Shown here: positions 13,238-56,640 of the stretch, piece after piece
Layout: each line of letters opens with the position of its first letter
Numbering within the stretch: the stretch's first letter is position 1
Virus record (IMG/VR): IMGVR_UViG_2840054979_000001
Span: 1-64,000 of that record
Length of the DNA: 64,000 nucleotides
Direction: 5' to 3' (one strand)
Origin: a virus
Lineage: Duplodnaviria; Caudoviricetes
The notes under the pieces: model-generated
Seen by the model: the letters and a program-made list of their open reading frames with translations, nothing else
Told to the model about the DNA's origin: nothing
Database searches by the model: none
Program-made: the position numbers and the translations under genes

Positions 13238-13301
13238 CTGTCGCCGCATCAGCTACACTTACTAGTAGGGACCAGGGAAGGGTCCCCGCCAGAAAGGAAC
13301 C
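13231..13301 (+). promoter_or_regulatory. Promoter plus AGGGAAG-loop hairpin plus SD
   Basis: TGGATA-17-TACACT; GGGACC-AGGGAAG-GGTCCC (13268-13286); GAAAGGAACC. Confidence 0.65.
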
Positions 13302-13306
13302 AGCTG

Positions 13307-14143
13307 ATGCCGACCGCAACCGACATGCGGATCGTCGACCTGCCCGTCGACCAGATCTCACCCGAGTGCAACGACCGCACGAAGTTCGACGAGACCGCGA
13401 TCGTCGCGCTCGCCGAGTCGATCGCCCGCAACGGGCTCGCCCAACCGATCACCGTCCGCCCCCGCCCCGACAGCGACGGCTACTGGCTGGTCGCCGGTGA
13501 ACGCCGCTGGCGGGCCCACCGGCACCTCGGCGCGTCAACGATCAAGGCCATCGTCCGTGACCTCGACGACCGCCGGGCCCAAGACGTCATGCTCGTCGAG
13601 AACATGGCCCGTCAGGATCTGAACCCGATCGAAGAGGCGACCGCGTACCGCAAGCGACTCGACGCCGGACTCGACATCGACGAGCTCGCCAAGATCGCCG
13701 GCGTGTCGGTCGCCCGGATCCGCTGGCGAGTCGGGCTGCTCGAGCTCACCCCAGAAATCCAGAAGCTCGTCGCGTCCGGCGACTTCGGTCCCGGCTACGC
13801 GGGGTCGATGCCCGGTCTCGACCCGCAACGGCAGCAGCTGGCGTTGCGGGCCTGCATGGAGAAGAACCTGACGGTGCAGGGCATGGAACTGCTGTGCGCG
13901 CAGCTGCTCGCCGAGCAGAACCAGGGCAGCATGTTCGACGCCGATTCGTTCATGCAGCTGGACGAGGTGGTCGCCAAGTCGCAGCGCGAGAACGTGAAGC
14001 TGTCGTCGATGGAACTGACCGCGCTCGCCGGCCGGGTGCTCGACGCCGTCCTCGATCACGTGCCGCTTGAGGCGCTGTCCCACGACGCCAAAGCCGACCT
14101 GGACCAGCTGCAGCGGGTCGTCGCCTTCCGGCTCAAGAAGTGA
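13307..14143 (+). CDS. ParB/RepB/Spo0J family protein
   Basis: LAESIARNGLAQPITVR, LVAGERRWRA, VENMARQDLNPIEEA, followed by an HTH. Confidence 0.93.
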   Translation: MPTATDMRIVDLPVDQISPECNDRTKFDETAIVALAESIARNGLAQPITVRPRPDSDGYWLVAGERRWRAHRHLGASTIKAIVRDLDDRRAQDVMLVENMARQDLNPIEEATAYRKRLDAGLDIDELAKIAGVSVARIRWRVGLLELTPEIQKLVASGDFGPGYAGSMPGLDPQRQQLALRACMEKNLTVQGMELLCAQLLAEQNQGSMFDADSFMQLDEVVAKSQRENVKLSSMELTALAGRVLDAVLDHVPLEALSHDAKADLDQLQRVVAFRLKK

Positions 14144-14183
14144 CAGAACTACGATCCGTCGCCGTGAACAGGGGTAGGGACCA

Positions 14184-14483
14184 ATGAACACGCCAACGCC
14201 GCCGCCGCCACCGATGCCGCCGAGACAGCCCGGCTACGCCACACCACCGGCCACCTCAGGCGGCCAGCCGGTGTGCCCGTACTGCGGAGCGCACGGCACG
14301 CTGCGCAGTCAGCAGAAGCAACTCACCACGAAGAAGCGCGTCAAGTTCGGCGTGATGTGGGTGGTGCTCACCGTCTGCACCGGCGGGATCGCATTCCTGA
14401 TCTGGCTGATGATGCCACGGCGCAACGAGGTCATCGGCGTCGACCGATGGACCGAATGCACCGCCTGCAAGTCGACTCTCTGA
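14184..14483 (+). CDS. Zn-ribbon membrane protein
   Basis: CPYCG...hydrophobic hairpin...CTAC; Pro-rich N-terminus. Confidence 0.7.
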   Translation: MNTPTPPPPPMPPRQPGYATPPATSGGQPVCPYCGAHGTLRSQQKQLTTKKRVKFGVMWVVLTVCTGGIAFLIWLMMPRRNEVIGVDRWTECTACKSTL

Positions 14484-14528
14484 CGACCGCGACCGGCCCG
14501 CTCGGTCGACGCGCCGCCACGGCTGATC

Positions 14529-15674
14529 TCAAGAAGTGAGCACGGCCGTCACCTGGTCGACGACGTAGTCGACGTCGTCGTTCGACATGGCGGCGTGGCA
14601 TGGGATCGCCAGGTGGCGGGCGCTGTACTCGGTGGCGCCGGGGATGGCGTCGCCGTAGAAGTCGCGGAAGTGGCTGAACTCGTGAAGCGGGATGAAGTAC
14701 ACCGACGATCCGACCCCGGCCGCGGCCAGCTGCTCGAGGTACTGGTTGCGGCGGGCCGGGTCGACGAACAGCGGGTACACGTACCGTGACCATGCCCGAC
14801 CGGGCAGCCGTGGCAGCAGGTCGACGCCGTCGAGTTGGCCCAACGCGACGTCGTAGCGGCCGCTGATCCAGCAGCGTCGGGACTGGGCGGCCCACGCGCG
14901 CCGTAGTTGAGCGACGCCGATCGCGGCGTGAACGTCGGACATGTTCGACTTCAAGCCGGGTCGGATGATGTCGTACCGCCACGTCGGGCCCCCGGACGCG
15001 TGGCGGGTCCACACGTCGCGGGACATGCCGTGCAGCCGCCAGCGGACAGCTTCGTCGAGCAGATCGTCAGGCCCCGTCAGCGCGCCGCCCTCGGCAGTCG
15101 TCAACGTCTTGGTGGCTTGGAAGCTGAACGCCGTCAGCCGGCGTACACCGATCGGGCCGGAAGGGTCGCCGATCGTGCGGCCGTCGACCGAGGCGGGCAG
15201 GGCGTGGGCGGCGTCCTCGACGATCGCGACGTCACGGCCGGCGCAGAGAGCGTCGATCGCGGTCATGTCGGCCGGCATCCCGTTGAGGTGCACCGGGATG
15301 ACCGCCCGAACGTCGTTGCCGTTCATCATCCGTTCGAGCAGGTCGACGTCGATCAGCCCGGTGGCCGGGTCGACGTCGCAGAGCCATGGCCGGCCGCCGG
15401 CTCGTTCGATGGCGTGCATGGTGCCGGGGAAGCCCATCGCCGAGGTGAGGACGATGCCGCCGTCGACGTCCACGGAGCGCAGGGCGAGCTCGATCGCGTC
15501 GGTGCACGACGAGAACAGTTCGACTCGGGGCGCTTCGACGAACCTGGCGAGGTCGGCGGCGAACTCGGCGCACTTCGGGCCGGTGGTGATCCACCCGGAG
15601 CGCAGCACGCTGGTGACCTCGGTGATTTCGTCGTCGGTGATCTGAGGCTGGGACAGGCCGACTCGTCGCATCAT
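14529..15674 (-). CDS. DegT/DnrJ/EryC1/StrS PLP-dependent sugar aminotransferase
   Basis: LRSGWITTGP, IPVHLNG, IVEDAAHA, FSFQATKTLTTAEGG (PLP lysine). Confidence 0.95.
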   Translation of the reverse strand: MMRRVGLSQPQITDDEITEVTSVLRSGWITTGPKCAEFAADLARFVEAPRVELFSSCTDAIELALRSVDVDGGIVLTSAMGFPGTMHAIERAGGRPWLCDVDPATGLIDVDLLERMMNGNDVRAVIPVHLNGMPADMTAIDALCAGRDVAIVEDAAHALPASVDGRTIGDPSGPIGVRRLTAFSFQATKTLTTAEGGALTGPDDLLDEAVRWRLHGMSRDVWTRHASGGPTWRYDIIRPGLKSNMSDVHAAIGVAQLRRAWAAQSRRCWISGRYDVALGQLDGVDLLPRLPGRAWSRYVYPLFVDPARRNQYLEQLAAAGVGSSVYFIPLHEFSHFRDFYGDAIPGATEYSARHLAIPCHAAMSNDDVDYVVDQVTAVLTS

Positions 15675-23301: not shown

Positions 23302-24863
23302 CCGCCGCCGTCCTCGACCGAACTAGCCAGCGGATCGCCAAGCGGGCCTGGCTCGCCACGCCAGACACGTTCGGCCGGCGGCTGTCGCACGGCACGCTCG
23401 TCGCGCCGTCGCATCTGCGGCTGCTGTCGTGGCTGCTGTACCTGTCGTCGATCGGCTACGTCAGGCGGCTGACCATCGCGATGCCGCCCGGCCACGCCAA
23501 GTCGACGGCGACGTCGCGTTGGTTTCCGGGCTGGGACCTCGAACTGCGGCCCAAGCACAAGATCATCCTGGCGTCGTACGAATCGACGCTCGCGGTCGAG
23601 CACGGCAAGGCCGTCCGCGAGATGCTGATGGAGAACGCCGACAAGCTGCACGTCCGGTTGAAGGCCGACTCCCAGGCCGCCGACCGGTGGGTGACGATGG
23701 CCGGCGGCGGTCTGCGCACCGCCGGCGCCGGCGGTTCGATCACCGGCCGCCGCGCCGACATCTTCATCGTCGACGACCCGTTCAAGGGGTTCGACGACTC
23801 GCATTCGCCGACGCAGCGCGGCGCGGTGTGGAACTGGTATCGGTCCGTCGCCCGCACCCGTCTGCTGCCGGGCGGCTCGATCATCATCGTGCAGACCCGC
23901 TGGCATCCCGAAGACCTGATCGGCATGGTGTCCGAACAGCCGAACTGGGTGCATCTGCGGCTGCCGGCGATCGCCGAAGAGGACGAGTCGATCGAGACGG
24001 TGGTCGGCGCCGAGTTCGTCGCCAAGTGCGCCCGCGACGGCGTCCCGCTGCCCGCCTGGCATCGGGCAGAAGGCGAACCGTTGTGGCCGTGGCTGATCGA
24101 ACCGTCCGACGTCCTGGCCGGCGTCCCGTGGTATTCGGCCGACGAGATGGCCGAGATCCGCGACGAGGTCGGCGAGTACGTCTGGCAGACCCTGTACCAG
24201 CAGAACCCGACCGTCATCGACGGCGACATGTTCAAGCGCGACAACTGGGTGCGTGTCGACGCCGCGCCGGCTGGCTTGCAGGTCGTGCGCCGCTGGGACA
24301 TGGCCGCCACCGAAGGCGGCGGCGACGCGACTGCCGGCGTGTTGATGGGCCGCGCGAAGAACGGCCGCGTGTACATCTTGGACGTCAAGCACGAGCGCTA
24401 CGGGCCGTCGGGCGTGGAGCGGCTGATCGCCAACACCGCCGAAGAGGACGCCGAGAAGTACGGCCGCAAGATGCCGATCCTGATCGAGCAGGAAGGCGGC
24501 TCGGCCGGCAAGAACGTCGCCGAGCACTACGCCGCGACGGTGCTGCCCGGGTTCAACGTCCGCTTCGAAGGGTCGACCGGCGACAAGACGGTCCGCGCGT
24601 TGCCGTTGGCCGCCCAGGTCGAATCCGGCAACGTGTATCTGGTGCGCCGCGAGGGAGACCGCGGCCCGGAAACACCGGGCTGGTGGTCGAAGCTGATCGA
24701 CGAGGCCGCCGCGTTCCCGAACGGCGCACACGACGACATCGTCGACGCGGCGTCGCTCGCCTACATGGATCTGCTCCGCCTCGCCAAGACCCGCAAGAAG
24801 GCGTCGACCGCTCGGGCGACCGGGTCGATCACAGCGCAGCCGATGCGCGCCGGCATCCGATAA
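23298..24863 (+). CDS. terL: Terminase large subunit
   Basis: MPPGHAKST (Walker A), ITGRRADIFIVDDP (Walker B), QTRWHPEDL, YQQNP, RRWDMA, FPNGAHDDIVDA nuclease motif. Confidence 0.96.
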   Translation: MTAAVLDRTSQRIAKRAWLATPDTFGRRLSHGTLVAPSHLRLLSWLLYLSSIGYVRRLTIAMPPGHAKSTATSRWFPGWDLELRPKHKIILASYESTLAVEHGKAVREMLMENADKLHVRLKADSQAADRWVTMAGGGLRTAGAGGSITGRRADIFIVDDPFKGFDDSHSPTQRGAVWNWYRSVARTRLLPGGSIIIVQTRWHPEDLIGMVSEQPNWVHLRLPAIAEEDESIETVVGAEFVAKCARDGVPLPAWHRAEGEPLWPWLIEPSDVLAGVPWYSADEMAEIRDEVGEYVWQTLYQQNPTVIDGDMFKRDNWVRVDAAPAGLQVVRRWDMAATEGGGDATAGVLMGRAKNGRVYILDVKHERYGPSGVERLIANTAEEDAEKYGRKMPILIEQEGGSAGKNVAEHYAATVLPGFNVRFEGSTGDKTVRALPLAAQVESGNVYLVRREGDRGPETPGWWSKLIDEAAAFPNGAHDDIVDAASLAYMDLLRLAKTRKKASTARATGSITAQPMRAGIR

Positions 24864-24879
24864 TTCTTCGCCGCCCCTC

Positions 24880-24908
24880 TTGCCTTCTGTAGCCGCTTCG
24901 ACTACAGT
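24880..24908 (+). promoter_or_regulatory. SigA-type promoter with overlapping inverted repeat (P1)
   Basis: TTGCCT-17-TACAGT; CTGTAG...CTACAG. Confidence 0.75.
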
Positions 24909-24929
24909 AGAGGGAGTCAACAAAAACAC

Positions 24930-24969
24930 CCCGTCGGGAAGGGAAGCCCGACGGGACCGAAAGGAACCC
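24930..24969 (+). repeat. AAGGGAAG-loop hairpin plus SD element
   Basis: CCCGTCGGG-AAGGGAAG-CCCGACGGG followed by GAAAGGAACCC. Confidence 0.85.
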
Positions 24970-24970
24970 C

Positions 24971-26161
24971 ATGACAGCCACCGATACCACTGCCGTCGTC
25001 GACGCGCCCGCCGAGACCGGCGAGGTCGCCGACACCAAGCCGAAGCGCAAGGGACGCGCTGCCGCCCGCAAGCGGCTCGCGTTCACCGCCGACCGTGAGC
25101 CGCTGCACAAGGCGCTCGCGGGCGCCGTGCTCGCCATCCTGCCCGGCGGCCTCCCCGTCCTCGCCGACGTCAAGCTGACCGTCGCCCGCAACCGCCTGAC
25201 GATCACCGCCACCGACCTCGCGTTGTCGATCGAGACCACAATCCCGGTGAAGGCCGCCAAGGCCGGCACCGTGCTCGTGCCCGGTCGGCTCCTGTTCGAG
25301 CTCGTGCGCTCGGCCGGTGACGAGATCCGCATCGCCGAAGGCGACGGCGAGTGCGACTTCACGTCGGGCGACTTCCAGGCCACGTTGAACACGCACGACG
25401 CCGCCGACTTCCCGGTGCCGCCCCCGGTCGACGGCGACCCGCTCGAGGTCGACTCCCTGCTGCTGTTCGCCGCCGTCGCCCGCACCGTCAAGGCCGCATC
25501 GAACGACCCGGTCCGCCCGATGCTCAACACGCTGTTCATCCACAACGTCGACGGCCAGTCCCGCCTCGTCGCCACCGACTCGTACCGGCTGCACGTCACC
25601 GACCTCGGCGAGAAGATGACCGCCGGGGACGTCGTCATCCCGGCCCGCTTCGCCACCGTGGCGTCGAGGGTGCTGGCCGGCGAGTCCGACAACGTCGCCG
25701 TCACGGTCACCGCATCGCACATCGCCATGTCGACGCCGTCGACGACGGTGATCGCCCGGATCGTCGAGGGCGACTACCCGAACTACGCCGGCCTGTTCCC
25801 GGCAACCTCGGACCTGCACGTCACCGTTGATCGTCGACCGCTCGCCGCCGCCATCACCCGCATGAGGGCGCTGATCGACGCCGACACCACCGTTGTGCTG
25901 ACGTTCGAGGCCGAGCAGGTGACCGTGTCGGCGTACGGCGTCGACGTCGGCAACGCTGCCGAGACGATCCGCTGTCAGAACGGACCCGACGAGGCGATGC
26001 GGATCGGGTTCAAGCCCGAGTACCTCCGAGATGCGCTGGCCGTCCAGGTCGCCGACTCGGTGACGTTCGCGATGCGCGATGCCATCAAGGCCGTCGTCAT
26101 CGAGGTCGCCGGCAACACGGCGGTCCGCCACCTGCTGATGCCGGTGCGAGTCCCGGGATGA
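24971..26161 (+). CDS. dnaN: DNA polymerase III beta sliding clamp
   Basis: LPVLADV, ATDL, DFP, RPMLNT, VATDSYRL, VIP, GDYPNY, IGFKPEYL, LLMPVR. Confidence 0.93.
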   Translation: MTATDTTAVVDAPAETGEVADTKPKRKGRAAARKRLAFTADREPLHKALAGAVLAILPGGLPVLADVKLTVARNRLTITATDLALSIETTIPVKAAKAGTVLVPGRLLFELVRSAGDEIRIAEGDGECDFTSGDFQATLNTHDAADFPVPPPVDGDPLEVDSLLLFAAVARTVKAASNDPVRPMLNTLFIHNVDGQSRLVATDSYRLHVTDLGEKMTAGDVVIPARFATVASRVLAGESDNVAVTVTASHIAMSTPSTTVIARIVEGDYPNYAGLFPATSDLHVTVDRRPLAAAITRMRALIDADTTVVLTFEAEQVTVSAYGVDVGNAAETIRCQNGPDEAMRIGFKPEYLRDALAVQVADSVTFAMRDAIKAVVIEVAGNTAVRHLLMPVRVPG

Positions 26162-26478
26162 GTGAGGCCGCCTTCGGGGCGGCCACGGCGCCGCAGCTGT
26201 TCGACGTCACCGTGTACGTCGAACAGCTGCCGGACCGGCTGCTGCCGTTCGATCCGCTGCTCGAGGCGTGGGGCGCGCACATGGGTGCGATCGCCGACGC
26301 GATGCACGTCGACGTCCGCACGGTGCAACGCTGGCGGGCCACGGGCCTGTCCTACGACCTGGCCGACGAGCTCGCCGTCCGTGCCGGGTTGCACGCCTTC
26401 GACGTGTGGGGCGACCTGTGGTTCGTCGGCACCGACCTCGAGACCGAGGCGGGCGACGACGCGGCTCTCGCCGCATAA
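26158..26478 (+). CDS. HTH DNA-binding protein (paralog of 38419)
   Basis: LPFDPL...ADAMHVDVRTVQRWRATGL..DLADELAVRAGLH...VWG..W. Confidence 0.7.
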   Translation: MSEAAFGAATAPQLFDVTVYVEQLPDRLLPFDPLLEAWGAHMGAIADAMHVDVRTVQRWRATGLSYDLADELAVRAGLHAFDVWGDLWFVGTDLETEAGDDAALAA

Positions 26479-26482
26479 TCTC

Positions 26483-26511
26483 TTGCTTACTGTAGCCGTA
26501 TGGACTACAGT
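26483..26511 (+). promoter_or_regulatory. SigA-type promoter with inverted repeat (P2), leaderless gene
   Basis: TTGCTT-ACTGTAGCCGTATGGAC-TACAGT; GTG start 7 nt downstream. Confidence 0.75.
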
Positions 26512-26518
26512 AGATGTT

Positions 26519-26722
26519 GTGACCACATTCCACGAATCCACCGTCGCCAACGTCAACGAAGGGGACGTCATCAGGCTCCACTGGGGCAAGCCTTTCCGGG
26601 TCAAGGCCATCCGACCCAACGATCTGCGACTCCAAGCCGTCGTCATCGACAGCCTGGACGGAGACCACTGGCCGGTCAAGACGACCGACACGGTCACCAT
26701 CGTCCGCCGCTCCTGGGACTGA
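26519..26722 (+). CDS. Small SH3/KOW-like hypothetical protein
   Basis: VANVNEGDVI...FRVKAI; leaderless. Confidence 0.6.
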   Translation: MTTFHESTVANVNEGDVIRLHWGKPFRVKAIRPNDLRLQAVVIDSLDGDHWPVKTTDTVTIVRRSWD

Positions 26723-26740
26723 CCTCCCGACAACCCACTC

Positions 26741-26781
26741 GCTGCCGGAAGGGAAGCCGGCAGCCAACCCGAAAGGAACCC
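26741..26781 (+). repeat. AAGGGAAG-loop hairpin plus SD element
   Basis: GCTGCCGG-AAGGGAAG-CCGGCAGC, then GAAAGGAACCC. Confidence 0.85.
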
Positions 26782-26786
26782 ACCCG

Positions 26787-27080
26787 ATGACACTCATCGA
26801 CTCCGGCTACGACCGCTGGCTCACCCACCCGATCGACGTCGCCTACGGCAGCAGCGACCGCATCACCGTCCTCGCCGAACACGTCGACGTCACCGACGCC
26901 GACTACATCGACTGGCGAGACGAATGGGCGGCCGACAACCCGCCGGCCGACGGTGACACCGCCGACGTCGATCAGCGCTGGCAGGACTCGCCCGACTTCG
27001 AGCGCTACCTCGAGTGGGCGGAAGAGCAGCAGCGTGACGCCGACCTCGACTACTGGGCGGAAGCGAGGTCGGGCCTGTGA
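26787..27080 (+). CDS. Acidic hypothetical protein
   Basis: Strong SD; D/E/W-rich. Confidence 0.7.
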   Translation: MTLIDSGYDRWLTHPIDVAYGSSDRITVLAEHVDVTDADYIDWRDEWAADNPPADGDTADVDQRWQDSPDFERYLEWAEEQQRDADLDYWAEARSGL

Positions 27081-27364
27081 GCGCCGCATCCGACTACGGC
27101 GTGGCGATCGTTGATCGCCTGATCCGGCCGCCGCTCGACGCTGGCGATCGCAACGTGTTCGCCGAGGGCGACCCAGCCACCGCCGTCGGCGACGTCATCG
27201 CCTACCTACTGCACTGGGCCGAAGCCAACGGCGTCAACGAGTCGTCGATCGGCGACGTCCTGGAGCTCGGCCGCAGTCACTGGGAAGCCGAACGTGGCGC
27301 CGGCGACGACCTCGCCCAAGGCTACGAGGACCGCTACCACGAACTGATCAGCCTGTTGACATGA
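27077..27364 (+). CDS. Hypothetical protein
   Basis: GDVIAYLLHWA pattern; coupled ORF. Confidence 0.65.
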   Translation: MSAASDYGVAIVDRLIRPPLDAGDRNVFAEGDPATAVGDVIAYLLHWAEANGVNESSIGDVLELGRSHWEAERGAGDDLAQGYEDRYHELISLLT

Positions 27365-27682
27365 GCGCACCAAGCGATCGGTTGCAAACGCCGGCGTCGA
27401 TCGAGCTCGTGCTGCCGCCCGCCGAGGTCGTGAAGGTCGAAACCTACTGATGCTCGGCCGACGCTCGTACCCGTGCGGCTGCCCGACATCGACCCGGATC
27501 GTGAACCAGACGCCGGGCCGGTACCGGCGCGACTGCCCGGTCTGCAGCGCGAGGTGGGTGCTCGTCCTGTCGGTCGCCCGCCACGCCAGCCAGATCGTGG
27601 GCCGAGAAGTGCTCCGCATTGATTGGGAGCCGGCCGGCCCACCGCAACTATCGATCTCTCCCGCACCCGCGGGGGCGAAACA

Positions 27683-27713
27683 GCCCGGAGGGAAGCCGGG
27701 CAAGAAAGGAACC
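27683..27713 (+). repeat. AGGGAAG-loop hairpin plus SD element
   Basis: GCCCGG-AGGGAAG-CCGGGC, then GAAAGGAACC; ATG at 27716. Confidence 0.8.
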
Positions 27714-27715
27714 AC

Positions 27716-27922
27716 ATGAGGACACGAACTGTCCGGCTCGACGGCGCCACCAAGCCGATGTGCCTGGTCGCCGTCGACCAAGGCCTCGTCGACCACCTGT
27801 CGCTCATCGTCCACCACCTTGGCGGCACGTTCAATGTCGCCGCGGATGAGATCCCCGAACCATGGCGCGACCTGTACGAGAGCGTGATGGCGTCGGCCAT
27901 CGTCGAAGAGACGGAGGGCTGA
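27716..27922 (+). CDS. Hypothetical protein
   Basis: Strong SD. Confidence 0.65.
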   Translation: MRTRTVRLDGATKPMCLVAVDQGLVDHLSLIVHHLGGTFNVAADEIPEPWRDLYESVMASAIVEETEG

Positions 27923-27971
27923 CGTGACGAGCCTCGTCGGGCTGAGTGCTGTCACCCCTTCGAGCAAGAAT

Positions 27972-28203
27972 GTCCAAGAGCCCTCCACCACCAATCACGG
28001 CGGTGACAGACGGTGGGGGCTACGGACGGTGGAGACACCGGTCGGGCGCGGAACCCGGCCGGGTCTCTGCCTGCAGTGGGGCGGGACGCCCGCAACGTCC
28101 CGCGGCGGAAACCCACTGCTCCCGGAGGTTGGGGTCGGTTGTCGGCGGCGACTGACCCCAACCTACGGATCATCCACCCATCGACGCCTGGGAAGTGGCG
28201 TCG
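27972..28203 (+). ncRNA. Candidate structured ncRNA or long 5' leader (five consecutive hairpins)
   Basis: Stems at about 27979-28021, 28028-28070, 28073-28119, 28122-28168, 28182-28203; upstream TGTC-N12-AAGAAT promoter. Confidence 0.5.
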
Positions 28204-28225
28204 CCCCCTTGAAAGGAACCCTGTG

Positions 28226-29107
28226 ATGGCAACCATCAACCGGTACATCGTCGAGTACGACGACGGCGAATCCGACGAGTGCGACACGTTCGCCGAAGCC
28301 GACGCGCTCGCACGGAGGCTCCGCGGCAAGGTCGTCGAGTACGAGTACGAGTACTCCGACTCGATCGTCGTCGCCGACCACACGGCGACCAGCGACCGCG
28401 GCGAGGCCGAGCCGGCAGCGAACCCGCCGGCCGTCTACCCCGACGGCACGAAGCTGTGGCGGGCCCCGTTCGACTTCGCCGACGGCACGGCCGGCGAGGT
28501 GACGATCACCGAGTCCGACGGTCCCGACCATGCCGTCGTCGTGCTGGTCGACACCGAGTTCGAACCGGACGGCTCCGACGGCACCCGCGGCCTGCGGGTG
28601 TACGTCAACGACGGCGCCGTGTTCGTCGGCGTCGAGCGGCAACCGCCCGATGGTGAGCCTGCTCCCCCGCCGCCGCACTCGCGGACGTTGACGGTCGCGG
28701 ACGGCTGGGAGATCGAGGTGACCGACTCGCACTCGGCGTTCATCCGCTACCGAGGCACCGATCTCGCTGCGCTGTGGGCGCCGGATCGTGACGGCGAAGT
28801 GAACCCGGTGCTGGAGGTCGCCCACGAAGCCAGAGTGTTCGGCGCCGCGAAGCACGGCGACCAGACCGAGTGGTCCGACCAGATGAACCACTCGATCGAC
28901 CTGGCAGCGCTCGCCGGCAGCGTCGACATCGGCATCGCCGAACTCGAGGTCCGCCGAGCGCGGCCCGTCGAGATGTGGCGACAGGCCGTCGCCGACGGTG
29001 AGACAACCGAGAGTTACGAAGCCTGGCTGCACCCGGCCGTGTGCGAGGCCCGCGCCACTGCCGTCGTGGCTGCCAAGGCCCGTTGGGGAGACAAGGCGGT
29101 CCGGTGA
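28226..29107 (+). CDS. Multidomain acidic hypothetical protein
   Basis: SD GAAAGGAACCC after a hairpin; C-terminal W...VADG.T...Y..W. Confidence 0.7.
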   Translation: MATINRYIVEYDDGESDECDTFAEADALARRLRGKVVEYEYEYSDSIVVADHTATSDRGEAEPAANPPAVYPDGTKLWRAPFDFADGTAGEVTITESDGPDHAVVVLVDTEFEPDGSDGTRGLRVYVNDGAVFVGVERQPPDGEPAPPPPHSRTLTVADGWEIEVTDSHSAFIRYRGTDLAALWAPDRDGEVNPVLEVAHEARVFGAAKHGDQTEWSDQMNHSIDLAALAGSVDIGIAELEVRRARPVEMWRQAVADGETTESYEAWLHPAVCEARATAVVAAKARWGDKAVR

Positions 29108-29270
29108 TGGATCCCGTCGTCGTCGCGGTCGTGTGCGGGTTCTGCCGCAACGCCGAGGAACATCTGCTGGTCGCCGGCCGGGCCCTGACGCGATGCCGGA
29201 AGTGTCGGTCGAACAATCTGATCGACCCGGCCACCGGCGAGTTCGTCGGCCCGCCCCAGGACGGGTTCCT

Positions 29271-31940
29271 GTGAGCGCCACGCTGTTCGACGTTGAGCCC
29301 AATGTCATGCGTGTGGTGCATGATGATGTCGTGGACGCGCGTGCCGAGTTGAAACGGTACCTGCACGCCGCGATCGGTCGGGTCGCGGCGAACTGCGACG
29401 GTGCCCGCGAGCAGGACGGGATCGGGTTCGACGGCTCCGACAGCAAGCCGGGCCGCATGATCGCATCGTGTCCGCCCGAGACGTGGTCCGATCAGATGGC
29501 GTCGCAGGCCGGGCTGTGGTGCCGCAAGTACGCCCGCCAGATCGGCCCCGACGCCAACGGCCTCGCCGACGAGGCGGCCAAGACGTTCGGCACCGTCACG
29601 GCGAAGTCGGCTGACGTGAAGGCCATCACCGCCGCCGAGGGCGGCTTCATCGTCCGGTTCGGCTACAACCCCGACGTCTCCGACGCCTTGCGCGAGATGG
29701 TGGTCGGCGCCCGCTGGAACGGCGACAAGCGCGCCTGGATCGTGCCCCGCCAACAGGGCGTCCGGCTCGAAAGCTTTGCCGCCCGGTACGGGTTCACGCT
29801 GTCGAACGCAGCCCACGCCCTGCTGACCGCGTCGCGGCACATGCAGACCGCCGACGGCAAGGTCGGCTTCGACGGCACCGACGTCACGATCGCGTTCGCC
29901 GACGTCCCCGACGCCGCAGTCCGCAAGGCCGTCAAGGCGTTGCCGGGCTGCCGGTTCGACTCGGTCGCCAAGCTGTGGCGGCTGCCGCCACGCTACGTCC
30001 GCACGGTCCGTGACCTCGCCGCACGGTTCGAGTGGGCGACGACCGGCGACTTCGACGCTCTGCCCGACCTCGACCCTGACGTCGTCGACGTCAAGGTGCG
30101 CGCCGACGGCACCACGTTGCTGGTGTCGTTCCCGTACGACAAGCAGCTGATCGACATCATGAACCAGGTCGGTGCCCGCTGGGACGGACGCGCCGAGGTG
30201 AAGGCGTGGCGGATCCCGGCCGAGGCCGGCTTCGATCTGCTCTCGGTGCTCGAGCACCAGAAGGTGAAGGTCGCCGACGACGACTCGACCGGCGACCTGT
30301 TGGACCAGGCCCGCCAGATGCTGGCCAGGATCACGAACTCGCGGGCGCTCGACGCCGACTTCGAGGTGTCCGGCATGGCGTGCGACCTGTATCCGTTCCA
30401 GCGGGCCGGCGTGAAGTACGTCGTCGAGGCCGGCGGCCGCAGCCTGATCGGCGACGAGATGGGCTTGGGCAAGACGCCTCAGGGCCTCGCCGCGCTGCAG
30501 GCGATGAACGCGTGGCCCGCCGCGGTGCTGGTGCCGAACGTCGTCAAGGTGAACTGGGTGCGCGCCGCGCACAAGTTCTTCCCGCATCTGCGCGTTGTCG
30601 CCCTGTACGGCATGTTGAAGCCCGAGTTCGCCCGCCAGCTGGTCCGCATGATCGAAGTCGGCCAACCCGACGGGCTGCTGGTGCCGTACACGATGTCGCC
30701 CGGCGAGGCCCGCTCAATCAAAGTCACCGACCGGGCATCGGCGGTCGAGGCGTACACGCTCCTGACGCAGGCCGATCTGATCGTCGTCAACTACGACGTG
30801 TTGGGTCCGACCGAGTTGACCGAGAAGGAGACGCTCGTCGGCAAGCGACCCGATCCGGGTTGGGTGCCGGTGTTGAAGGCGCTGCCTTTGAAGGGCATCG
30901 TCGCTGACGAGTCGCACGGTCTGAAAGACCCCAAGACGCTGCGGACCCGGGCGTGCATCGAAACGGCCCGGTCGCTGCCCGACGGCGCCGCGAAGATCGG
31001 CATGTCCGGCACGCTGGTGTTGAACCGACGTGTCGAGGTTGCCGCCCAGCTGGACTTCATCGGCATGTTGGACGAGTTCGGCGGCTACACCGCCGTCAAA
31101 CAGATGCCTGATCTGGCCCGTCGGCTTCGAGCCCGCTGCATGGTTCGCCGTGACAAGGCCGAGGTGCTGCCCGAGCTCCCGCCCCGTCAGCACGAACCGA
31201 TCGTGTTGAACCAGTCCGAGCTCGACGCCAAGGTGATGGCCGAGTACCGCCACGCCGAGCGCGACCTGCTCGACTTCCTGGCCCGCCGCGCGGCGGAGAT
31301 GGCCCTCGAGGCCGGGCTGGATCCGACGTCGGCAGCGATCGAAGCCCGCATGAAAGCGGCCGGCGCCGAGTTCCTGATCCGCATCGGTGTGCTGCTGCGC
31401 TTGGCGTTGCGAGCGAAGAAGAAGGCGGCTCGCCGCTGGATCGACGAGTTCGCCAAGACCGGCGAGAAGCTGCTGGTGTTCGGTTCGCACCTTGAGCAGC
31501 TGGATGAGTTCGCCGCTGAGTTCGGCGCCCCTGAGATCAAGGGCGGCGTGTCACCGGAGCGGCGCATGGAGATCGTCGACGACTTCCAGGACCCGAACGG
31601 CGCCCAGTTGTGCTTCCTGCAGATCCACGCCGGCGGTGTCGGCCTGACGATGACGGCAGCGAGCAACGTCCTGTTTTTGGAGCAGGCGTGGTCGCCGATG
31701 TTGCACGACCAGGCGATCGACCGCTGCTACGGCCGTCTCGACGGCGACCCGCACGGCGCGGTCGGCTGGTATCTGGTCGCTGAGGACACGATCGAAGAGT
31801 GGGTGTCGCAGCTGCTCGCGGAGAAGCGCATCGAGTGTGCTGACGCGCTCGACGGTGACGTGACCGACGGCCAGATCGAGTCGACGTCGGTGTACTCCGA
31901 CCTCGTCGGAATGTTGGTCCGCAAAGCGGTCCAACCATGA
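29271..31940 (+). CDS. SNF2-family helicase with three HARP-like N-terminal repeats (SMARCAL1-like)
   Basis: LYPFQRAGV, LIGDEMGLGKT, DESH, MSGT, GGVGLTMT, QAIDR; repeats F.Y....GARW....AW.(I/V)P. Confidence 0.9.
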   Translation: MSATLFDVEPNVMRVVHDDVVDARAELKRYLHAAIGRVAANCDGAREQDGIGFDGSDSKPGRMIASCPPETWSDQMASQAGLWCRKYARQIGPDANGLADEAAKTFGTVTAKSADVKAITAAEGGFIVRFGYNPDVSDALREMVVGARWNGDKRAWIVPRQQGVRLESFAARYGFTLSNAAHALLTASRHMQTADGKVGFDGTDVTIAFADVPDAAVRKAVKALPGCRFDSVAKLWRLPPRYVRTVRDLAARFEWATTGDFDALPDLDPDVVDVKVRADGTTLLVSFPYDKQLIDIMNQVGARWDGRAEVKAWRIPAEAGFDLLSVLEHQKVKVADDDSTGDLLDQARQMLARITNSRALDADFEVSGMACDLYPFQRAGVKYVVEAGGRSLIGDEMGLGKTPQGLAALQAMNAWPAAVLVPNVVKVNWVRAAHKFFPHLRVVALYGMLKPEFARQLVRMIEVGQPDGLLVPYTMSPGEARSIKVTDRASAVEAYTLLTQADLIVVNYDVLGPTELTEKETLVGKRPDPGWVPVLKALPLKGIVADESHGLKDPKTLRTRACIETARSLPDGAAKIGMSGTLVLNRRVEVAAQLDFIGMLDEFGGYTAVKQMPDLARRLRARCMVRRDKAEVLPELPPRQHEPIVLNQSELDAKVMAEYRHAERDLLDFLARRAAEMALEAGLDPTSAAIEARMKAAGAEFLIRIGVLLRLALRAKKKAARRWIDEFAKTGEKLLVFGSHLEQLDEFAAEFGAPEIKGGVSPERRMEIVDDFQDPNGAQLCFLQIHAGGVGLTMTAASNVLFLEQAWSPMLHDQAIDRCYGRLDGDPHGAVGWYLVAEDTIEEWVSQLLAEKRIECADALDGDVTDGQIESTSVYSDLVGMLVRKAVQP

Positions 31941-31959
31941 CCAGTTGTATGCATGTGGG

Positions 31960-33322: not shown

Positions 33323-33345
33323 CATAGATGTCAACTACATACCAC

Positions 33346-33382: not shown

Positions 33383-33388
33383 GCAGCG

Positions 33389-39434: not shown

Positions 39435-39437
39435 ACG

Positions 39438-39902
39438 ATGACCCGTACCCGCAATTTCGACGTCGACACGCCCGAGGGCCAGGCGAACGTCGCCCGCGCG
39501 ATCGGCAAGGCAGTGGCGACCGTGATCGTCGCGATCGTCTTGGTGATCGTCGGCTGGAAGGTCGTGTCGCCGAAGCTGAACCTGTACCGCAGCAACACCG
39601 AGAAGCAGTCGGTGATCGCCGAGCAGGAAGCCATCAGCCAGGCGGAGGTGTACGCCGCTCAGAAGCGCGTCACCGCGGCGGAGGCCGAGGCCGAGGCGCG
39701 CATCATCGAGGCCGAGTCGATCGCCGAGTCGCAGCGCATCATCTCTGAGACGTTGACGCCGGAGTATCTGACGTGGCGGTTCTACGAGGTGCTGGCCACG
39801 ACGGAGAACGAGATCATCTACGTGCCGACCGAGGCGGGGCTGCCCATCTTGGAGGCCGCACGCAACACGCCGCCTGTCGTCGTGGAGTCCGACAATGGGT
39901 GA
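39438..39902 (+). CDS. SPFH/band-7-like membrane protein (short form)
   Basis: TM helix, then AEAEAEARIIEAE.IAESQ.II..TLTPEYL.W...IIYVPTEAGLPILEA. Confidence 0.75.
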   Translation: MTRTRNFDVDTPEGQANVARAIGKAVATVIVAIVLVIVGWKVVSPKLNLYRSNTEKQSVIAEQEAISQAEVYAAQKRVTAAEAEAEARIIEAESIAESQRIISETLTPEYLTWRFYEVLATTENEIIYVPTEAGLPILEAARNTPPVVVESDNG

Positions 39903-52174: not shown

Positions 52175-52203
52175 TTGACTACCGTAGCCGTCTCTGCTAC
52201 AGT
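52175..52203 (+). promoter_or_regulatory. SigA-type promoter with inverted repeat (P4)
   Basis: TTGACT-ACCGTAGCCGTCTCTGC-TACAGT; leaderless GTG at 52211. Confidence 0.8.
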
Positions 52204-52210
52204 ATTAAGG

Positions 52211-52453
52211 GTGATCAACCCCACCAACCACTCGGAGGACTACCAGCACGGCATCGACATCGGCCTCAAGACGCCAGCGCACCTGCTCGACATCACGTTG
52301 CAGCGACGCAGCTTCGACGTCGCCACATTGACCGACACGATCGCCAGCCAGGAAGGCGCCGGGGTCGAAAGCCACGTGCTCGACACCTACCGCCGGAAGC
52401 TGGCACAGAAACGAGGCATCGTCGACGCCATCAACCAGCGCCTCACCGCCTGA
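52211..52453 (+). CDS. Hypothetical protein
   Basis: Leaderless from P4. Confidence 0.65.
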   Translation: MINPTNHSEDYQHGIDIGLKTPAHLLDITLQRRSFDVATLTDTIASQEGAGVESHVLDTYRRKLAQKRGIVDAINQRLTA

Positions 52454-52464: not shown

Positions 52465-52500
52465 CGCCGGCGAGGGAAGCGCCGACGTCGAAAGGAACCC
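52465..52500 (+). repeat. AGGGAAG-loop hairpin plus SD with no start codon behind it
   Basis: CGcCGGCG-AGGGAAG-CGCCGaCG, then GAAAGGAACCC, then a GC hairpin. Confidence 0.7.
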
Positions 52501-52584
52501 ACCAGCCGTCCGGGCGGTCCCGCCGCCGCCCGGACGGCCAACCATCCGCCGCGAGGACGCGGCCTTGATAATGTCCGAGACACA

Positions 52585-52619
52585 TGCCGGGAAGGGAAGC
52601 CCGGCACCGAAAGGAACCC
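52585..52619 (+). repeat. AAGGGAAG-loop hairpin plus SD element
   Basis: TGCCGGG-AAGGGAAG-CCCGGCA, then GAAAGGAACCC. Confidence 0.85.
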
Positions 52620-54635: not shown

Positions 54636-54664
54636 TTGACTACTGTAGCCCTTCAGACTACAGT
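54636..54664 (+). promoter_or_regulatory. SigA-type promoter with inverted repeat (P5)
   Basis: TTGACT-ACTGTAGCCCTTCAGAC-TACAGT; leaderless GTG at 54672. Confidence 0.8.
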
Positions 54665-54671
54665 AGGTGTT

Positions 54672-54932
54672 GTGAACAACACCTATCGAGCCACCGTCTA
54701 CCCGGCACCGCCAGAGTTGCGCGACCGACCGGGTATGACGCTCGCCCGCATCTTCGACAACGCCGCCGACGCCCTCGACTGGGTGTGCTCGAAGATCAGC
54801 CACGCCCGCGAGCGAGGCGACATCGAGGAACTCGCCGACAACGGCGACATCGACCACAACGGCGTCTGGATCAGCTGCTACCGCAGCCGTGGAGGAAGCA
54901 TCAAGATCGACGGCTACTCCCAGGTCGCCTGA
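54672..54932 (+). CDS. Hypothetical protein
   Basis: Leaderless from P5. Confidence 0.65.
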   Translation: MNNTYRATVYPAPPELRDRPGMTLARIFDNAADALDWVCSKISHARERGDIEELADNGDIDHNGVWISCYRSRGGSIKIDGYSQVA

Positions 54933-54949: not shown

Positions 54950-54989
54950 GCTGCCGGAAGGGAAGCCGACAGCACACCGAAAGGAACCC
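54950..54989 (+). repeat. AAGGGAAG-loop hairpin plus SD element
   Basis: GCTGCCGG-AAGGGAAG-CCGACAGC, then GAAAGGAACCC. Confidence 0.85.
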
Positions 54990-54990
54990 G

Positions 54991-55467
54991 ATGACCACCA
55001 GCCTCTACTGGCACGCGCCCGGCACCCGGGCGTTCATCCGCACCGCCCATTTCCCGTCGAGCACCTACGTCGGCGCCAGCCAGGCGTTCGCGTCGCTGTA
55101 CCGGGAGATCGAACTCGACGACACCGACATCATCGCCGTCTTGGCCGGCGGCACGTTCGTCCGCACCGACACCGACCCGTATGGCAACCGGATGGGCGAC
55201 ACGTACGTCTTCGAAGCACGGTTCTCACCGAACTGCCAGCACCTGTTCGAACGCGGCCCCGTCCGCAAAGACCCGGTGCCCGAAGGCACCCCAGCGCCCG
55301 CGTTGGTGTGGGCGTCCTATTGGCAGCCGTGGCGCTGGAAGCCGTTCACGCTCGACTGGACCTACCAGCAGGTTCGAGACGCGGGTGCGGTCCCGTTCGG
55401 CGCGATGGACTACCACTGGCCGCTCGACGCCGAACAGCCCGTCTTCCCGGCGAAGGCAGTGCGGTGA
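54991..55467 (+). CDS. Hypothetical protein
   Basis: Strong SD. Confidence 0.7.
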   Translation: MTTSLYWHAPGTRAFIRTAHFPSSTYVGASQAFASLYREIELDDTDIIAVLAGGTFVRTDTDPYGNRMGDTYVFEARFSPNCQHLFERGPVRKDPVPEGTPAPALVWASYWQPWRWKPFTLDWTYQQVRDAGAVPFGAMDYHWPLDAEQPVFPAKAVR

Positions 55468-55928
55468 TGGGCGCGCTCATCGGATTCCTGCGTGCCGCCG
55501 ACATCGGCGACTGCACCAACGGCGGCACGTCAGGCCGGCACGTCCGCTGTGTCGTCGTCAACGTGCCCGGCCCGTTCGACCCGTCGCCGGATTCGCCGGC
55601 AATGATGCTCGTCCCCGGCGCCTACGGTGCCCCGATCCTCGTCGACGCCGTCCGCGACGGCAACGGCGGATGGAAGCCCGCTGAATCCGGGCCGGACGGC
55701 AAGACGATCGGCCCGATGGCCGGCGGCAATTACGCCGCGACGCACGGCTCGTGGCGCGACATCGTCGCCGACATGACCGCCACCGCGATGTTCGACCGGA
55801 ACTACGGCCGCGGCCCCGACCTCGACCTCGAGGGCCTGCGCCGCCTCGCCCGCGACTGCGCACCGCACGCCGTCGCCGTCCACGACCGATGGGAAACCCC
55901 AGCCCAGTACGACCAGCTGTCCCGATGA
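55467..55928 (+). CDS. Hypothetical phage protein
   Basis: DCTNGG.S...MAGGNYA...VHDR.E, a recurring phage family pattern. Confidence 0.75.
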   Translation: MGALIGFLRAADIGDCTNGGTSGRHVRCVVVNVPGPFDPSPDSPAMMLVPGAYGAPILVDAVRDGNGGWKPAESGPDGKTIGPMAGGNYAATHGSWRDIVADMTATAMFDRNYGRGPDLDLEGLRRLARDCAPHAVAVHDRWETPAQYDQLSR

Positions 55929-55972
55929 AAGCCTCCCAGGGCCGTGTCGCCGCCATCGCTACAGTTATCCGC

Positions 55973-56377
55973 ATGGCGAAGGCAGACCCCGTCGGAGCGA
56001 TCGAAATCGCCCACCGACTCGACGTCACCCCGAAGACCGTGCAGACCTGGCGGTTCCGACGCGCCCTGCCGCCGGCCGACTACCAGGTGAACGGGGCCGA
56101 CGCCTGGGACTGGATGACGATCCTGCGTTGGGCCGGCCAGACCGGCCGTCTCCGCACCGAAGCCATGGCCGCCGCGTACAAGGCGAAGTTCCGCAAGGAC
56201 CCGGCCCCGCCGAACGAAGGCGGCGCCGGCACGTGGAAGACACCGGCGAAACAAGTCGCCGCGCAACGCGCCGCCCGCCGAACCGCGACGAAGCCACCGT
56301 CGACGAAGTCCGTCAAGAAGAAGCCCGCCCGCAAGACCGCCGCCAAGAAGGCGGCAGCCGCCGGGAAGCCGAACTGA
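55973..56377 (+). CDS. AlpA/MerR-like HTH protein with Lys/Ala-rich tail
   Basis: PVGAIEIAHRLDVTPKTVQTWR....LP.....G..AWDW..I..WA..TGR; KKPARKTAAKK tail; leaderless after TACAGT at 55960. Confidence 0.8.
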   Translation: MAKADPVGAIEIAHRLDVTPKTVQTWRFRRALPPADYQVNGADAWDWMTILRWAGQTGRLRTEAMAAAYKAKFRKDPAPPNEGGAGTWKTPAKQVAAQRAARRTATKPPSTKSVKKKPARKTAAKKAAAAGKPN

Positions 56378-56601
56378 TGGGCTCCGACCGCTTCGACTGG
56401 GAGACCTACGTCATCGGCGAGGTGATCGACCCCGAGCTCGAGGAACGCCTCGACAGCATCGCGCTCAAACGTGCCGAGTTCGACCTCGCCCTCGAGCGAT
56501 TCGACGCCGTCGCCGGGAGCGCCGCTGACGCTCTGAACGAGTTCGCCGCCGCCTGGAACGACTGGGGCCCCGTCGTCAACTAGCCGCTCTCCGCACATCA
56601 C

Positions 56602-56640
56602 GTCGGGGAGGGAAGCCCCGACACCATCTGAAAGGAATCC
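56602..56640 (+). repeat. AGGGAAG-loop hairpin plus SD element
   Basis: GTCGGGG-AGGGAAG-CCCCGAC, then GAAAGGAATCC. Confidence 0.85.

Follow-up and report, generated by a model that had tools for sequence, protein, structure and literature searches.

A covarying hairpin with a fixed purine loop before the extended Shine-Dalgarno sequence of sixteen genes in an actinobacterial prophage

Start-associated sequences (SAS) have been known from actinobacteriophages since 2011, and they are the closest described counterpart of the element that we report here. In cluster K mycobacteriophages, a 13-nucleotide (nt) SAS, GGGATAGGAGCCC, lies 3–7 nt before the starts of 11–19 non-structural genes and shows conservation that goes further than the bases paired with 16S rRNA; its role is given as not known (PMC3203893). 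About half of these SAS are preceded by an extended SAS (ESAS) with 17-bp inverted repeats, for which RNA pairing was not supported according to the authors (PMC3203893), and the ESAS of Adephagia has been re-read as a SigA-like promoter with an inverted repeat (PMC11373665). In cluster EF Microbacterium phages GGGAAAGGACCCC is present ten times, and a weak motif lies upstream of it (PMC7302621). Papers from 2024 and 2025 still describe the role of SAS as unknown or unverified (PMC11373665, PMC12699233), and the later one, a survey of 188 cluster K genomes, states that it needs experimental verification (PMC12699233). The element in question here is a hairpin followed by an extended Shine-Dalgarno (SD) sequence, which together we call the module, in a 64,000-nt stretch of viral DNA (Duplodnaviria; Caudoviricetes; IMG/VR record IMGVR_UViG_2840054979_000001, positions 1 to 64,000). 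We call this whole stretch the window and give positions in its numbering unless a contig is named. The window corresponds to G000:C23:129264-193263 in a 6.2-Mb, 70% GC assembly of 73 contigs, and it is part of a prophage of about 98 kb (C23:129.3-227.7 kb) in a high-GC actinobacterium. Our results concern this one genome, known as an assembly. We tentatively read the module as a two-part mRNA operator that may be recognised by a dedicated factor and may control the translation of 16 genes as a set; we think this quite possible, though we would stop short of giving it an even chance.

Conserved loops on stems of free sequence are read by proteins in boxB, coat-protein operators, CsrA sites and RegB sites. 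CsrA/RsmA sites contain A-N-GGA twice, in the loop of a hairpin and again where it overlaps the SD. Lambda boxB is a short GC stem with a purine-rich 5-nt loop and lies behind early promoters. Linear SD-like sequences that are away from a start codon and strongly complementary to 16S rRNA are known as STAB-SD elements. In phage T4, RegB cuts GGAG in the intergenic SDs of early mRNAs, best if the GGA is unpaired and the next G constrained, and RegA represses about 30 mRNAs (PMC3014915). In E. coli, a hairpin upstream of the SD costs translation unless there is enough single-stranded flank (PMC3936740).

Copies of the module and their specificity

From 5' to 3', the module consists of a G-poor A/C tract, a stem around the loop (A)AGGGAAG, a linker of 2–7 nt, the 10-mer GAAAGGAACC, another 2–7 nt and a start codon. 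We found 17 copies in the prophage, and all 17 are on the + strand, which bears out a preliminary description of the window that had placed every copy on the coding strand. The twelve copies listed in that description are all present where it put them, including the one at 28182 with the loop TGGGAAGT, and five more lie beyond the end of the window, so that its count holds for the window and not for the total. The copies are as follows.

13268-13309, + strand: module 1; stem GGGACC/GGTCCC, loop AGGGAAG at 13274-13280, SD at 13292-13301, ATG at 13307 of a ParB-like gene
13254-13259, + strand: -10 box TACACT of a variant promoter before module 1
24930-24973, + strand: module 2; 9-bp stem CCCGTCGGG/CCCGACGGG, loop AAGGGAAG, SD at 24959-24968, ATG at 24971 of the DNA polymerase III beta clamp
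26741-26789, + strand: module 3; stem GCTGCCGG/CCGGCAGC, loop AAGGGAAG, SD at 26771-26780, ATG at 26787 (97 aa); 19 nt past the stop of the leaderless gene 26519-26722
27683-27718, + strand: module 4; stem GCCCGG/CCGGGC, loop AGGGAAG, SD at 27704-27713, ATG at 27716 (68 aa)
28182-28228, + strand: module 5; stem CGACGCC/GGCGTCG, variant loop TGGGAAGT, SD at 28211-28220, GTG at 28223 or ATG at 28226 (294 aa, no family match)
33346-33391, + strand: module 6; stem CCACCGG/CCGGTGG, loop AAGGGAAG, SD at 33372-33381, ATG at 33389 (82 aa)
33818-33863, + strand: module 7; stem GCTGCCGG/CCGGCAGC, loop AAGGGAAG, SD at 33846-33855, ATG at 33861 (65 aa); CCCAACCAACCC in front
39398-39440, + strand: module 8; stem CACCGGG/CCCGGTG, loop AGGGAAG, SD GAAAGGATCC at 39425-39434, ATG at 39438 (154 aa, phrog_11227)
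52468-52499, + strand: module 9, an orphan; stem CGGCG/CGCCG, loop AGGGAAG, SD at 52490-52499, no start codon
52585-52623, + strand: module 10; stem TGCCGGG/CCCGGCA, loop AAGGGAAG, SD at 52609-52618, ATG at 52621 (133 aa, weak MarR-like match)
54950-54993, + strand: module 11; stem GCTGCCGG/CCGACAGC with one C/A mismatch, loop AAGGGAAG, SD at 54979-54988, ATG at 54991 (158 aa); after the leaderless gene 54672-54932
56602-56646, + strand: module 12; stem GTCGGGG/CCCCGAC, loop AGGGAAG, SD GAAAGGAATC at 56630-56639, ATG at 56644 of an RtcB RNA ligase
G000:C23:195676-195715, 197403-197441, 197839-197877, 225196-225233 and 226475-226515, + strand: the five copies past the window end

The stems are GC-rich. 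The five stem sequences that had been quoted are correct and the stems are indeed paired, with a length of 5–10 bp instead of the 6–9 bp first given; two copies, 54950 and one past the window end, have a single A/C mismatch. Between them the 17 copies use 14 distinct stems; GCTGCCGG is common to three copies, which also have similar flanks, and CCACCGG to two. The loop is AAGGGAAG in nine copies, AGGGAAG in seven and TGGGAAGT in one, which makes it invariant in 16 of 17. Fifteen modules have the exact SD 10-mer, and in the other two it differs at one position. Placement just before an SD also stands, with a gene start 2–7 nt after the SD in 16 of the 17 copies (15 ATG and one GTG) and none for the copy first given as 52465, which is our orphan module 9. 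The gene whose 3' region holds this orphan is leaderless and codes for 80 aa (52211-52453). The orphan, at the start of the stretch 52468-52560, has a 10-bp GC hairpin behind it, and next come a TTGATAAT promoter-like site and a second module. The linker between hairpin and SD is 52% C, 8% G and 16% T, and the 15 nt upstream of the hairpin are 33% A, 43% C, 13% G and 11% T, against a prophage average of 33% G.

The genes behind the modules are non-structural. ParB-like, beta clamp and RtcB genes are among them, as had been noted, and most of the others are without a family match; the SPFH/Band-7 protein that was also named as a target did not hold up, with no such match for any module gene.

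The module is far more frequent than chance would give. The window has 12 occurrences of AGGGAAG, every one of them on the + strand, against an expected 3.7, and none of 100 shuffles reached 12; 11 of the 12 are hairpin loops before the 10-mer, and the twelfth (34703) is intragenic and has no stem. The 10-mer with at most one mismatch occurs 15 times in the window against 2.1 expected, and 12 of these sit after the listed hairpins. In the whole prophage, there are 15 perfect-stem hairpins with a GGGAAG loop, whereas 200 dinucleotide shuffles gave 0.8 on average and 4 at most. For 11 of these 15, GAAAGGA lies wholly inside the next 12 nt, and none of the 200 shuffles gave such a composite.

It is also restricted to the prophage. 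GGGAAG flanked by at least five pairs is found 149 times genome-wide, and the SD follows only in C23:142.5-226.5 kb. Exact 10-mers number 22 in the 6.2 Mb, of which 16 are on the + strand of the prophage, one is on its minus strand and five are elsewhere. A covariance model built from 8 copies recovered all 12 copies in the window and the five beyond it, one of which has a stem mismatch and was missed by the pattern scan. When we ran the model on the whole genome, it recovered 16 modules out of 17, together with an SD-only copy on the minus strand of the prophage; elsewhere in the genome it gave 4 weak matches (15–23 bits), none with the loop motif. Neither pattern nor covariance searches found a module outside the prophage in the 6.2-Mb genome.

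A few other sites resemble the module in part. The minus-strand copy of GAAAGGAACCC just mentioned (L002:11854-11884, which is G000:C23:225117-225147) lies behind a hairpin CCGC AGTG GCGG and is divergent from a module promoter, and no open reading frame (ORF) of at least 30 aa follows it. Outside the prophage, a host serine-recombinase-like gene (G000:C23:21521-21555, minus strand) has a tetraloop hairpin, 3 nt, GAAAGGAACC, 8 nt and ATG, which is the same architecture without the loop motif. One SD-only relative is in the window:

3017-3063, + strand: hairpin CCTCG..CGAGG around GCCGGCCGGC, 3–4 nt, GAAAGGAACC at 3048-3057, ATG at 3061; without the AGGGAAG loop

Stem pairing, the loop and the ribosome

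We aligned 18 rows, the 17 modules and the minus-strand SD-only copy, guided by the model. Standard pairs fill 92.9% of the stem cells, compared with 64.4% in shuffles, and both sides change in 6 of the 8 stem pairs. The covariation score is 0.523 versus 0.113 in shuffles (0 of 500 reach 0.523), and it falls to 0.03–0.10 when the 3' partner is slid by 1–3 columns. Since 14 stems stay paired around a fixed loop, simple copying or neutral drift is not expected to produce the pattern.

The isolated hairpins have predicted energies of -8.6 to -24.2 kcal/mol (mean -14.0), and the loop is predicted to be 86% unpaired. Of 8 leaders that we folded in context, 7 contain the hairpin in their minimum-energy structure, and the folding energies of these 8 whole leaders are not unusual (z from -2.2 to +1.8). 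Predicted SD openness is 0.61 for module genes (n=16) and 0.38 for other + strand genes (n=121; p 2e-8); a crude caller supplied the gene starts that are not part of a module. We considered the idea that the hairpin is an insulator which keeps the SD open, and rejected it. When the 5' arm was barred from pairing, SD openness was 0.614 versus 0.620 (p 0.5), so the hairpin is not needed for a free SD.

The loop and the SD look alike. The loop with its closing pairs, GGAAGGGAAGCC, agrees with the SD region, CGAAAGGAACCC, at 9 of 12 positions with a core of A-R-GGAA, and the A-N-GGA cores of the two are 15–21 nt apart. Every one of the 17 copies has AGGGA in the loop and AAGGA in the SD. At its 3' end the host 16S rRNA reads GGATCACCTCCTTTCT, and GAAAGGA pairs perfectly with UCCUUUC of this tail, with -9.6 kcal/mol for the 10-mer. 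The conserved ACC(C) after the GGA of the SD finds no partner in the 16S tail. Of the 17 copies, 16 have GGAA. In the regions upstream of 1789 long host ORFs, for which the start calls are crude, we counted AAGGAG 27 times and AAGGAA 5 times. AAGGAG thus prevails upstream of host ORFs, and strict GGAA is therefore not the host's usual choice.

Promoters, prophage setting and relatives

Six of the 17 modules are behind a promoter of the type TTGNCN-17-TACAGT. Promoters and transcription starts are predictions throughout. The promoter family is sigma-70-like, with TTG(A/C)CN, a 17-nt spacer that holds CTGTAGCC, and then ACTACAGT, and it contains the inverted repeat ACTGTAG..CTACAGT, which judging by its sequence is probably the operator of the prophage repressor. 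The strict pattern has 6 matches genome-wide, all on the + strand of the prophage. Four of these lead via GTCAAC into a module, and two have a GTG start at the same position and are leaderless; looser variants add 2 module-linked promoters and 1 leaderless gene. The sites outside the module list are as follows.

24880-24908, + strand: promoter-like site; TTGCCT, 17 nt with CTGTAGCC, then ACTACAGT; GTCAAC 8 nt after the -10; inverted repeat
33294-33322, + strand: promoter-like site; TTGACT-17-TACAGT with the inverted repeat ACTGTAG..CTACAGT; GTCAAC leader from 33330
26483-26521, + strand: promoter (26483-26511) with a leaderless gene; GTG at 26519, where GTCAAC sits in leadered units
54636-54674, + strand: promoter (54636-54664) with a leaderless gene; GTG at 54672
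52175-52213, + strand: variant promoter (52175-52203), TTGACT..CCGTAGCC..CTACAGT, with a leaderless gene; gene start at 52211
G000:C23:195627, 197354 and about 225150: promoter-family sites beyond the window

The GTCAAC leader begins exactly 8 nt after the -10 in 5 copies, and one base (GTG versus GTC) divides the leaderless from the leadered design. Because GTCAAC stands where the leaderless genes have their GTG, the hairpin lies inside the predicted transcript. In the six promoter-linked modules it is 11–16 nt inside the predicted primary transcript, and a terminator role is therefore excluded. None of the 7 module hairpins in 24000-34500 received a + strand terminator call, and no copy has a T-run after the hairpin. 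The other 11 copies have no recognised promoter in front, and 7 of them begin 3–21 nt past the preceding stop codon. A module directly follows each of the 3 leaderless genes.

Portal, capsid and other structural genes that have intergenic gaps are set up in another way, with a motif CATGATGATG, GGAGG-type SDs and no hairpin. This motif may be a late promoter or a regulator site. We also saw CATGATGATG(C/T) or its complement at about 12500, 15700, 31965, 47030 and 61350 in the window and at about 77170, 90790 and 95090 beyond it.

The prophage has about 150 ORFs by a simple gene caller, nearly all on the + strand. Its structural genes include a large terminase, portal, MuF-like protein, major head, major tail and tape measure, and the right end holds a tRNA-Trp/Lys/His cluster. 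No att repeat of at least 12 nt was found between the two prophage ends. The left end is in the window:

1-1990: prophage left end, with a tyrosine integrase at 1-1224 (+ strand) and a helix-turn-helix repressor-like gene at 1607-1990 (minus strand)

We made three side observations on the gene content. A sugar/modification gene cluster at about 1400-23300 of the window, for which our summary lists families and not their ORFs, includes DegT/DnrJ aminotransferase, Polysacc_synt_2 dehydratase, PIG-L deacetylase, WbqC, several methyltransferases, GNAT/FemAB-like and TET-associated glycosyltransferase (TAGT) families, and suggests glycosylation of DNA or virion. ARAGORN called a 94-nt tRNA-Arg(GCG) at 28034-28127 on the minus strand, in the 300-nt gap before module 5, which is doubtful given its length and strand. 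The MuF/portal-associated protein (L001:245-2320, or 64245-66320 in window numbering) matches phage RNA-ligase PHROGs at residues 3–144, and the phage also encodes RtcB.

The prophage is distant from the phages that we could compare it with. Its terminase, capsid and RtcB have about 30–50% identity to known phages; for the capsid the figure is 27–35% against large phages of Gordonia, Arthrobacter and Microbacterium, and no phage record exceeds 39% identity to the terminase. Megablast of 24-34 kb of the window against 50,697 phage records gave no match. A single-protein terminase scan of genome contigs and viral contigs returned nothing, a profile scan gave 80 + 80 loci at no more than 49% identity with the motif in none, and there was no terminase relative among 400 same-family genomes. 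Terminase relatives at 59–66% identity are present in Logan assemblies as protein matches. Among 400 same-order genomes we found one capsid relative, G058, at 39% identity; as a separate observation, its capsid-relative region (G058:C7:10001-115733, loci L317-L322) has 9 copies of TCATATATATATTATCG, which is a different repeat, and no module.

Searches for the module itself gave the same picture. The covariance model had one weak match each in 3 genomes among 60 relatives, and no real copy in DSL-LC01, GMA2, AnnaSerena and Terij. A first pattern scan of IMG/VR gave single matches per contig, of which 12 were at E up to 0.01 and none paired like the model; a second scan, by pattern only and unfolded, also gave single matches per contig among the matches listed. 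Rfam 15 has 0 matches at gathering score in the window, and with E up to 1 the region 24860-28260, which holds 4 modules, has 3 weak matches, none overlapping a module. The preliminary description had considered a known Rfam family or a host-wide repeat as other identities for the element; covariance-model searches turned up neither, and they found no copy in related phages.

Candidate readers, rival explanations and known systems

We take the module to be a signal in mRNA that is tied to translation initiation because of its strand specificity, its in-transcript position, its distance from the start, the covariation and the conserved exposed loop. That it acts as RNA, that something other than the ribosome reads it, and which direction its effect takes are points that we infer from the sequence. 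In the mechanism that we propose, the module would be a cis-acting mRNA signal in promoter-driven, non-structural transcription units. A stable hairpin would display the purine loop (A)AGGGAAG with the extended SD 2–7 nt downstream, both carrying A-R-GGAA. A factor acting in trans would recognise loop and SD together; the likeliest candidate is a phage protein that either has two RNA-binding sites or forms a dimer. Its binding would set ribosome access, and perhaps decay, for the 16 genes as one set. The logic would be as for CsrA sites and for RegA/RegB on T4 early mRNAs. We favour a dedicated reader because A-R-GGAA is duplicated 15–21 nt apart and conserved beyond what pairs with rRNA, and also because the design is absent from host genes and the module genes are sorted from the structural genes. 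A narrower version of this proposal, that the prophage has a private translation code in which a protein of no known family, perhaps from among the many small early proteins of the phage, reads A-R-GGAA twice, in the loop and in the SD, and switches the 16-gene set on or off as a block, strikes us as rather unlikely. The phage-wide regulon of the preliminary description stands as far as a strand-specific, structure-conserving element at ribosome sites is concerned; its protein-bound part stays conjectural, no partner having been found in the following searches.

Several points weigh against a dedicated reader. The alignment used for covariation was fitted to the structure, and the counts are inflated because the copies are paralogues in one genome, three of them with the same stem. 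A genome-wide search for CsrA (PF02599) had its best score at 15 bits, below the cut-off of 27, and outside the prophage. Pfam scans of 144 prophage proteins (26 at E 0.01 or better, 118 at E 0.001 or better) found no known RNA-binding families, and PHROGs were uninformative for 12 of the 14 module genes that we scanned. No second phage with the module was found in the searches above. The loop AAGGGA itself pairs with UCCUUU of the 16S rRNA, with one G.U pair and -5.3 kcal/mol versus -9.6 for the SD, and the ribosome alone could therefore be the reader.

What the Pfam scans did find in the prophage proteins are DNA-binding, replication, sugar-modification, methyltransferase and lysis domains; no RegA/RegB relatives and no RegB- or RelE-type nuclease families turned up. 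The small, beta-rich, leaderless 67-aa early protein has an AlphaFold predicted local distance difference test (pLDDT) score of 68 and no fold match in the PDB at E 0.001 or better, and an Atlas search with it returned only unnamed clusters. A kissing partner or small RNA (sRNA) was considered and rejected: CTTCCCT is absent from the rRNA operon, and CTTCCC in the prophage is either intragenic or no more frequent than chance. At the right end of the prophage, tRNA-Trp is directly followed by a hairpin with loop CTTCCCAG, which was taken as the terminator of that tRNA. The 6C sRNA (RF01066) was not found in the host, in a search of low sensitivity that scored 150 of 3176 candidates.

A ribosome that reads the module by itself would use the loop as a weaker, displayed SD at which the 16S 3' tail would be tethered or kept on standby, and we hold this to be unlikely though well worth keeping in mind. 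A 30S subunit from solution, or one left after an upstream stop, would dock on the loop and pass to the SD 15–21 nt downstream, with the A/C-rich flanks as a landing surface. Loop AAGGGA and SD AAAGGA differ by a single A-to-G change for which G.U keeps the UCCUUU pairing, the flanks and linker are G-poor, the SD region is predicted to be more open than at other phage genes, and of the 11 copies without a promoter 7 are 3–21 nt past a stop codon. The geometry is that of the E. coli standby site modules (PMC3936740), yet in the same work hairpins lower initiation. The mechanism should moreover be open to host genes, and none of them has the module; ACC after the GGA, the strict GGAA and the G after the loop GGGAA are unexplained by 16S pairing; a loop of 7–8 nt gives about 5 pairs at most; and the orphan at 52468 has no start codon to serve. 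That orphan, in a 3' region without a gene to translate, fits a role in RNA fate. The hairpin might block 5'-to-3' or 5'-end-dependent decay (of the RNase J or RNase E type), or it might mark a cleavage in the A/C tract that would give each downstream cistron a defined, protected 5' end near the SD. In Bacillus, ribosomes at strong SDs and SD-like 5' stabilisers block RNase J1, and our hairpins are stable, with 6 copies close to a predicted 5' end and the other 11 between cistrons. We nonetheless judge such a role improbable. A stabiliser requires neither a conserved loop nor a strict 2–7 nt link to the SD, and 5 of the promoter-linked copies have 11–16 unpaired nt before the hairpin. By the E. 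coli 5'-hairpin rule, unpaired nt before a hairpin mean poor protection of the 5' end. In a variant of this explanation, a RegB-type phage nuclease would use the exposed GGA of loop and SD to shut off early mRNAs; it agrees with the preference of RegB for an unpaired GGA with a constrained next G (PMC3014915), but the prophage proteins gave no such nuclease family in our Pfam scans.

The remaining explanations do not involve translation or decay. The module could be without regulatory meaning, as a ribosome-site cassette spread by copying or recombination at gene boundaries, or it could be a signal in DNA or single-stranded DNA, such as a recombination linker or priming site. Recent copying is visible in the shared GCTGCCGG stem and flanks of three copies and in CCACCGG in two, the modules sit at the boundaries of small, mostly family-less genes, one copy is an orphan, and both stem mismatches are A/C on the + strand. 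However, simple copying would leave the stems unchanged and neutral decay would spare the loop no more than the stems, whereas 14 different stems keep their pairing and the loop is fixed; a recombination linker should favour identity, not compensatory change; and neither idea accounts for a single orientation relative to the genes and a fixed distance to the start codon. We therefore give this explanation very little weight, and less still to a transcription-level signal in the nascent RNA, which we regard as highly improbable. This could be a nut/boxB-like antitermination site, a pause hairpin or a terminator without a U-tract, and what speaks for it are six copies directly behind promoters, loops that are purine-only like those of lambda boxB, and a long prophage that is almost all transcribed one way. 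The missing terminator calls and T-runs speak against it, and a terminator 11–16 nt past the start site would kill the unit. Antitermination needs no 17 copies each 2–7 nt from an SD, and loops of 7–8 nt do not match the 5-nt loop of boxB. The boxB-like alternative that the preliminary description had offered is a poor fit for these reasons, and also because 11 copies have no promoter.

If a dedicated factor that reads the operator exists, it would be a phage post-transcriptional regulator of a new kind, and this in a phylum not known to use CsrA. If the private code is real, this would be the first SAS system with demonstrable RNA structure and a mechanistic entry to a puzzle open since 2011. 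If instead the ribosome is the reader, the module would be a natural case of a standby SD displayed in a loop. Either way it would be a compact, portable translation-control part for high-GC hosts, and the loop, the stem and GGAA versus GGAG are simple, separable targets for mutation.

Among known systems, CsrA/RsmA sites resemble the module in that GGA is found in the loop and at the SD, 15–21 nt apart. The fit to CsrA that had been proposed is correct to this extent, whereas the gene is missing: PF02599 stayed below the cut-off in host and prophage, and the core here, A-R-GGAA-S-CC, is longer. T4 RegB and RegA also control a phage-wide early mRNA set at ribosome sites, but T4 sites have no shared hairpin, and those of RegA are A/U-rich and unstructured (PMC3014915). 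The standby site modules have a distal single strand, a hairpin, a short proximal single strand and an SD, as here; they are synthetic E. coli leaders with arbitrary loops, in which the hairpin is a cost to offset and not a conserved signal (PMC3936740). The difference from boxB includes, beyond loop size, copy number and promoters, the fixed link to a true SD. STAB-SD elements likewise offer an SD-like sequence away from the start codon but are linear; the predicted duplex of the loop with 16S rRNA is only -5.3 kcal/mol.

SAS are closer than the preliminary description had thought when it called the element reminiscent of them and different in sequence and structure; the hairpin does differ. 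In both systems each phage has 10–19 copies of an asymmetric motif that occupies the ribosome site, a few nt ahead of a start codon that is mostly ATG, and both are in one orientation, phage-specific, at non-structural genes and conserved past the bases that pair with 16S rRNA. With SD regions aligned, as opposed to consensus searches of window or genome, GAAAGGAACCC of the prophage agrees with the cluster EF GGGAAAGGACCCC at 10 of 13 positions, and agreement with the K motif is lower. The likeness extends to ESAS, with 6 of the 17 modules behind a SigA-like promoter with an inverted repeat as in Adephagia. On the other side, the motif sequences differ and there is no genome similarity, and the prophage also places its module between cistrons. 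Judged by its sequence, the prophage SD is a functional analogue of the published SAS consensus, not the same motif. The prophage alone adds a hairpin, with a free covarying stem and a fixed loop, between the promoter or upstream stop and the SD. In our check of the AnnaSerena sequence (cluster EF), all 10 SAS are behind promoter-like sequences and 3 have some hairpin, with no shared loop. Such a hairpin is not described in the accessible text of the SAS papers or in the further literature that we searched, a search to which supplementary site tables were external. A covarying hairpin with an SD-like loop gives direct evidence, at the level of sequence, that an SAS-like system works at least in part as folded RNA. 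The layout of promoter plus extended SD parallels ESAS and SAS, and the covarying, loop-conserved hairpin is new.

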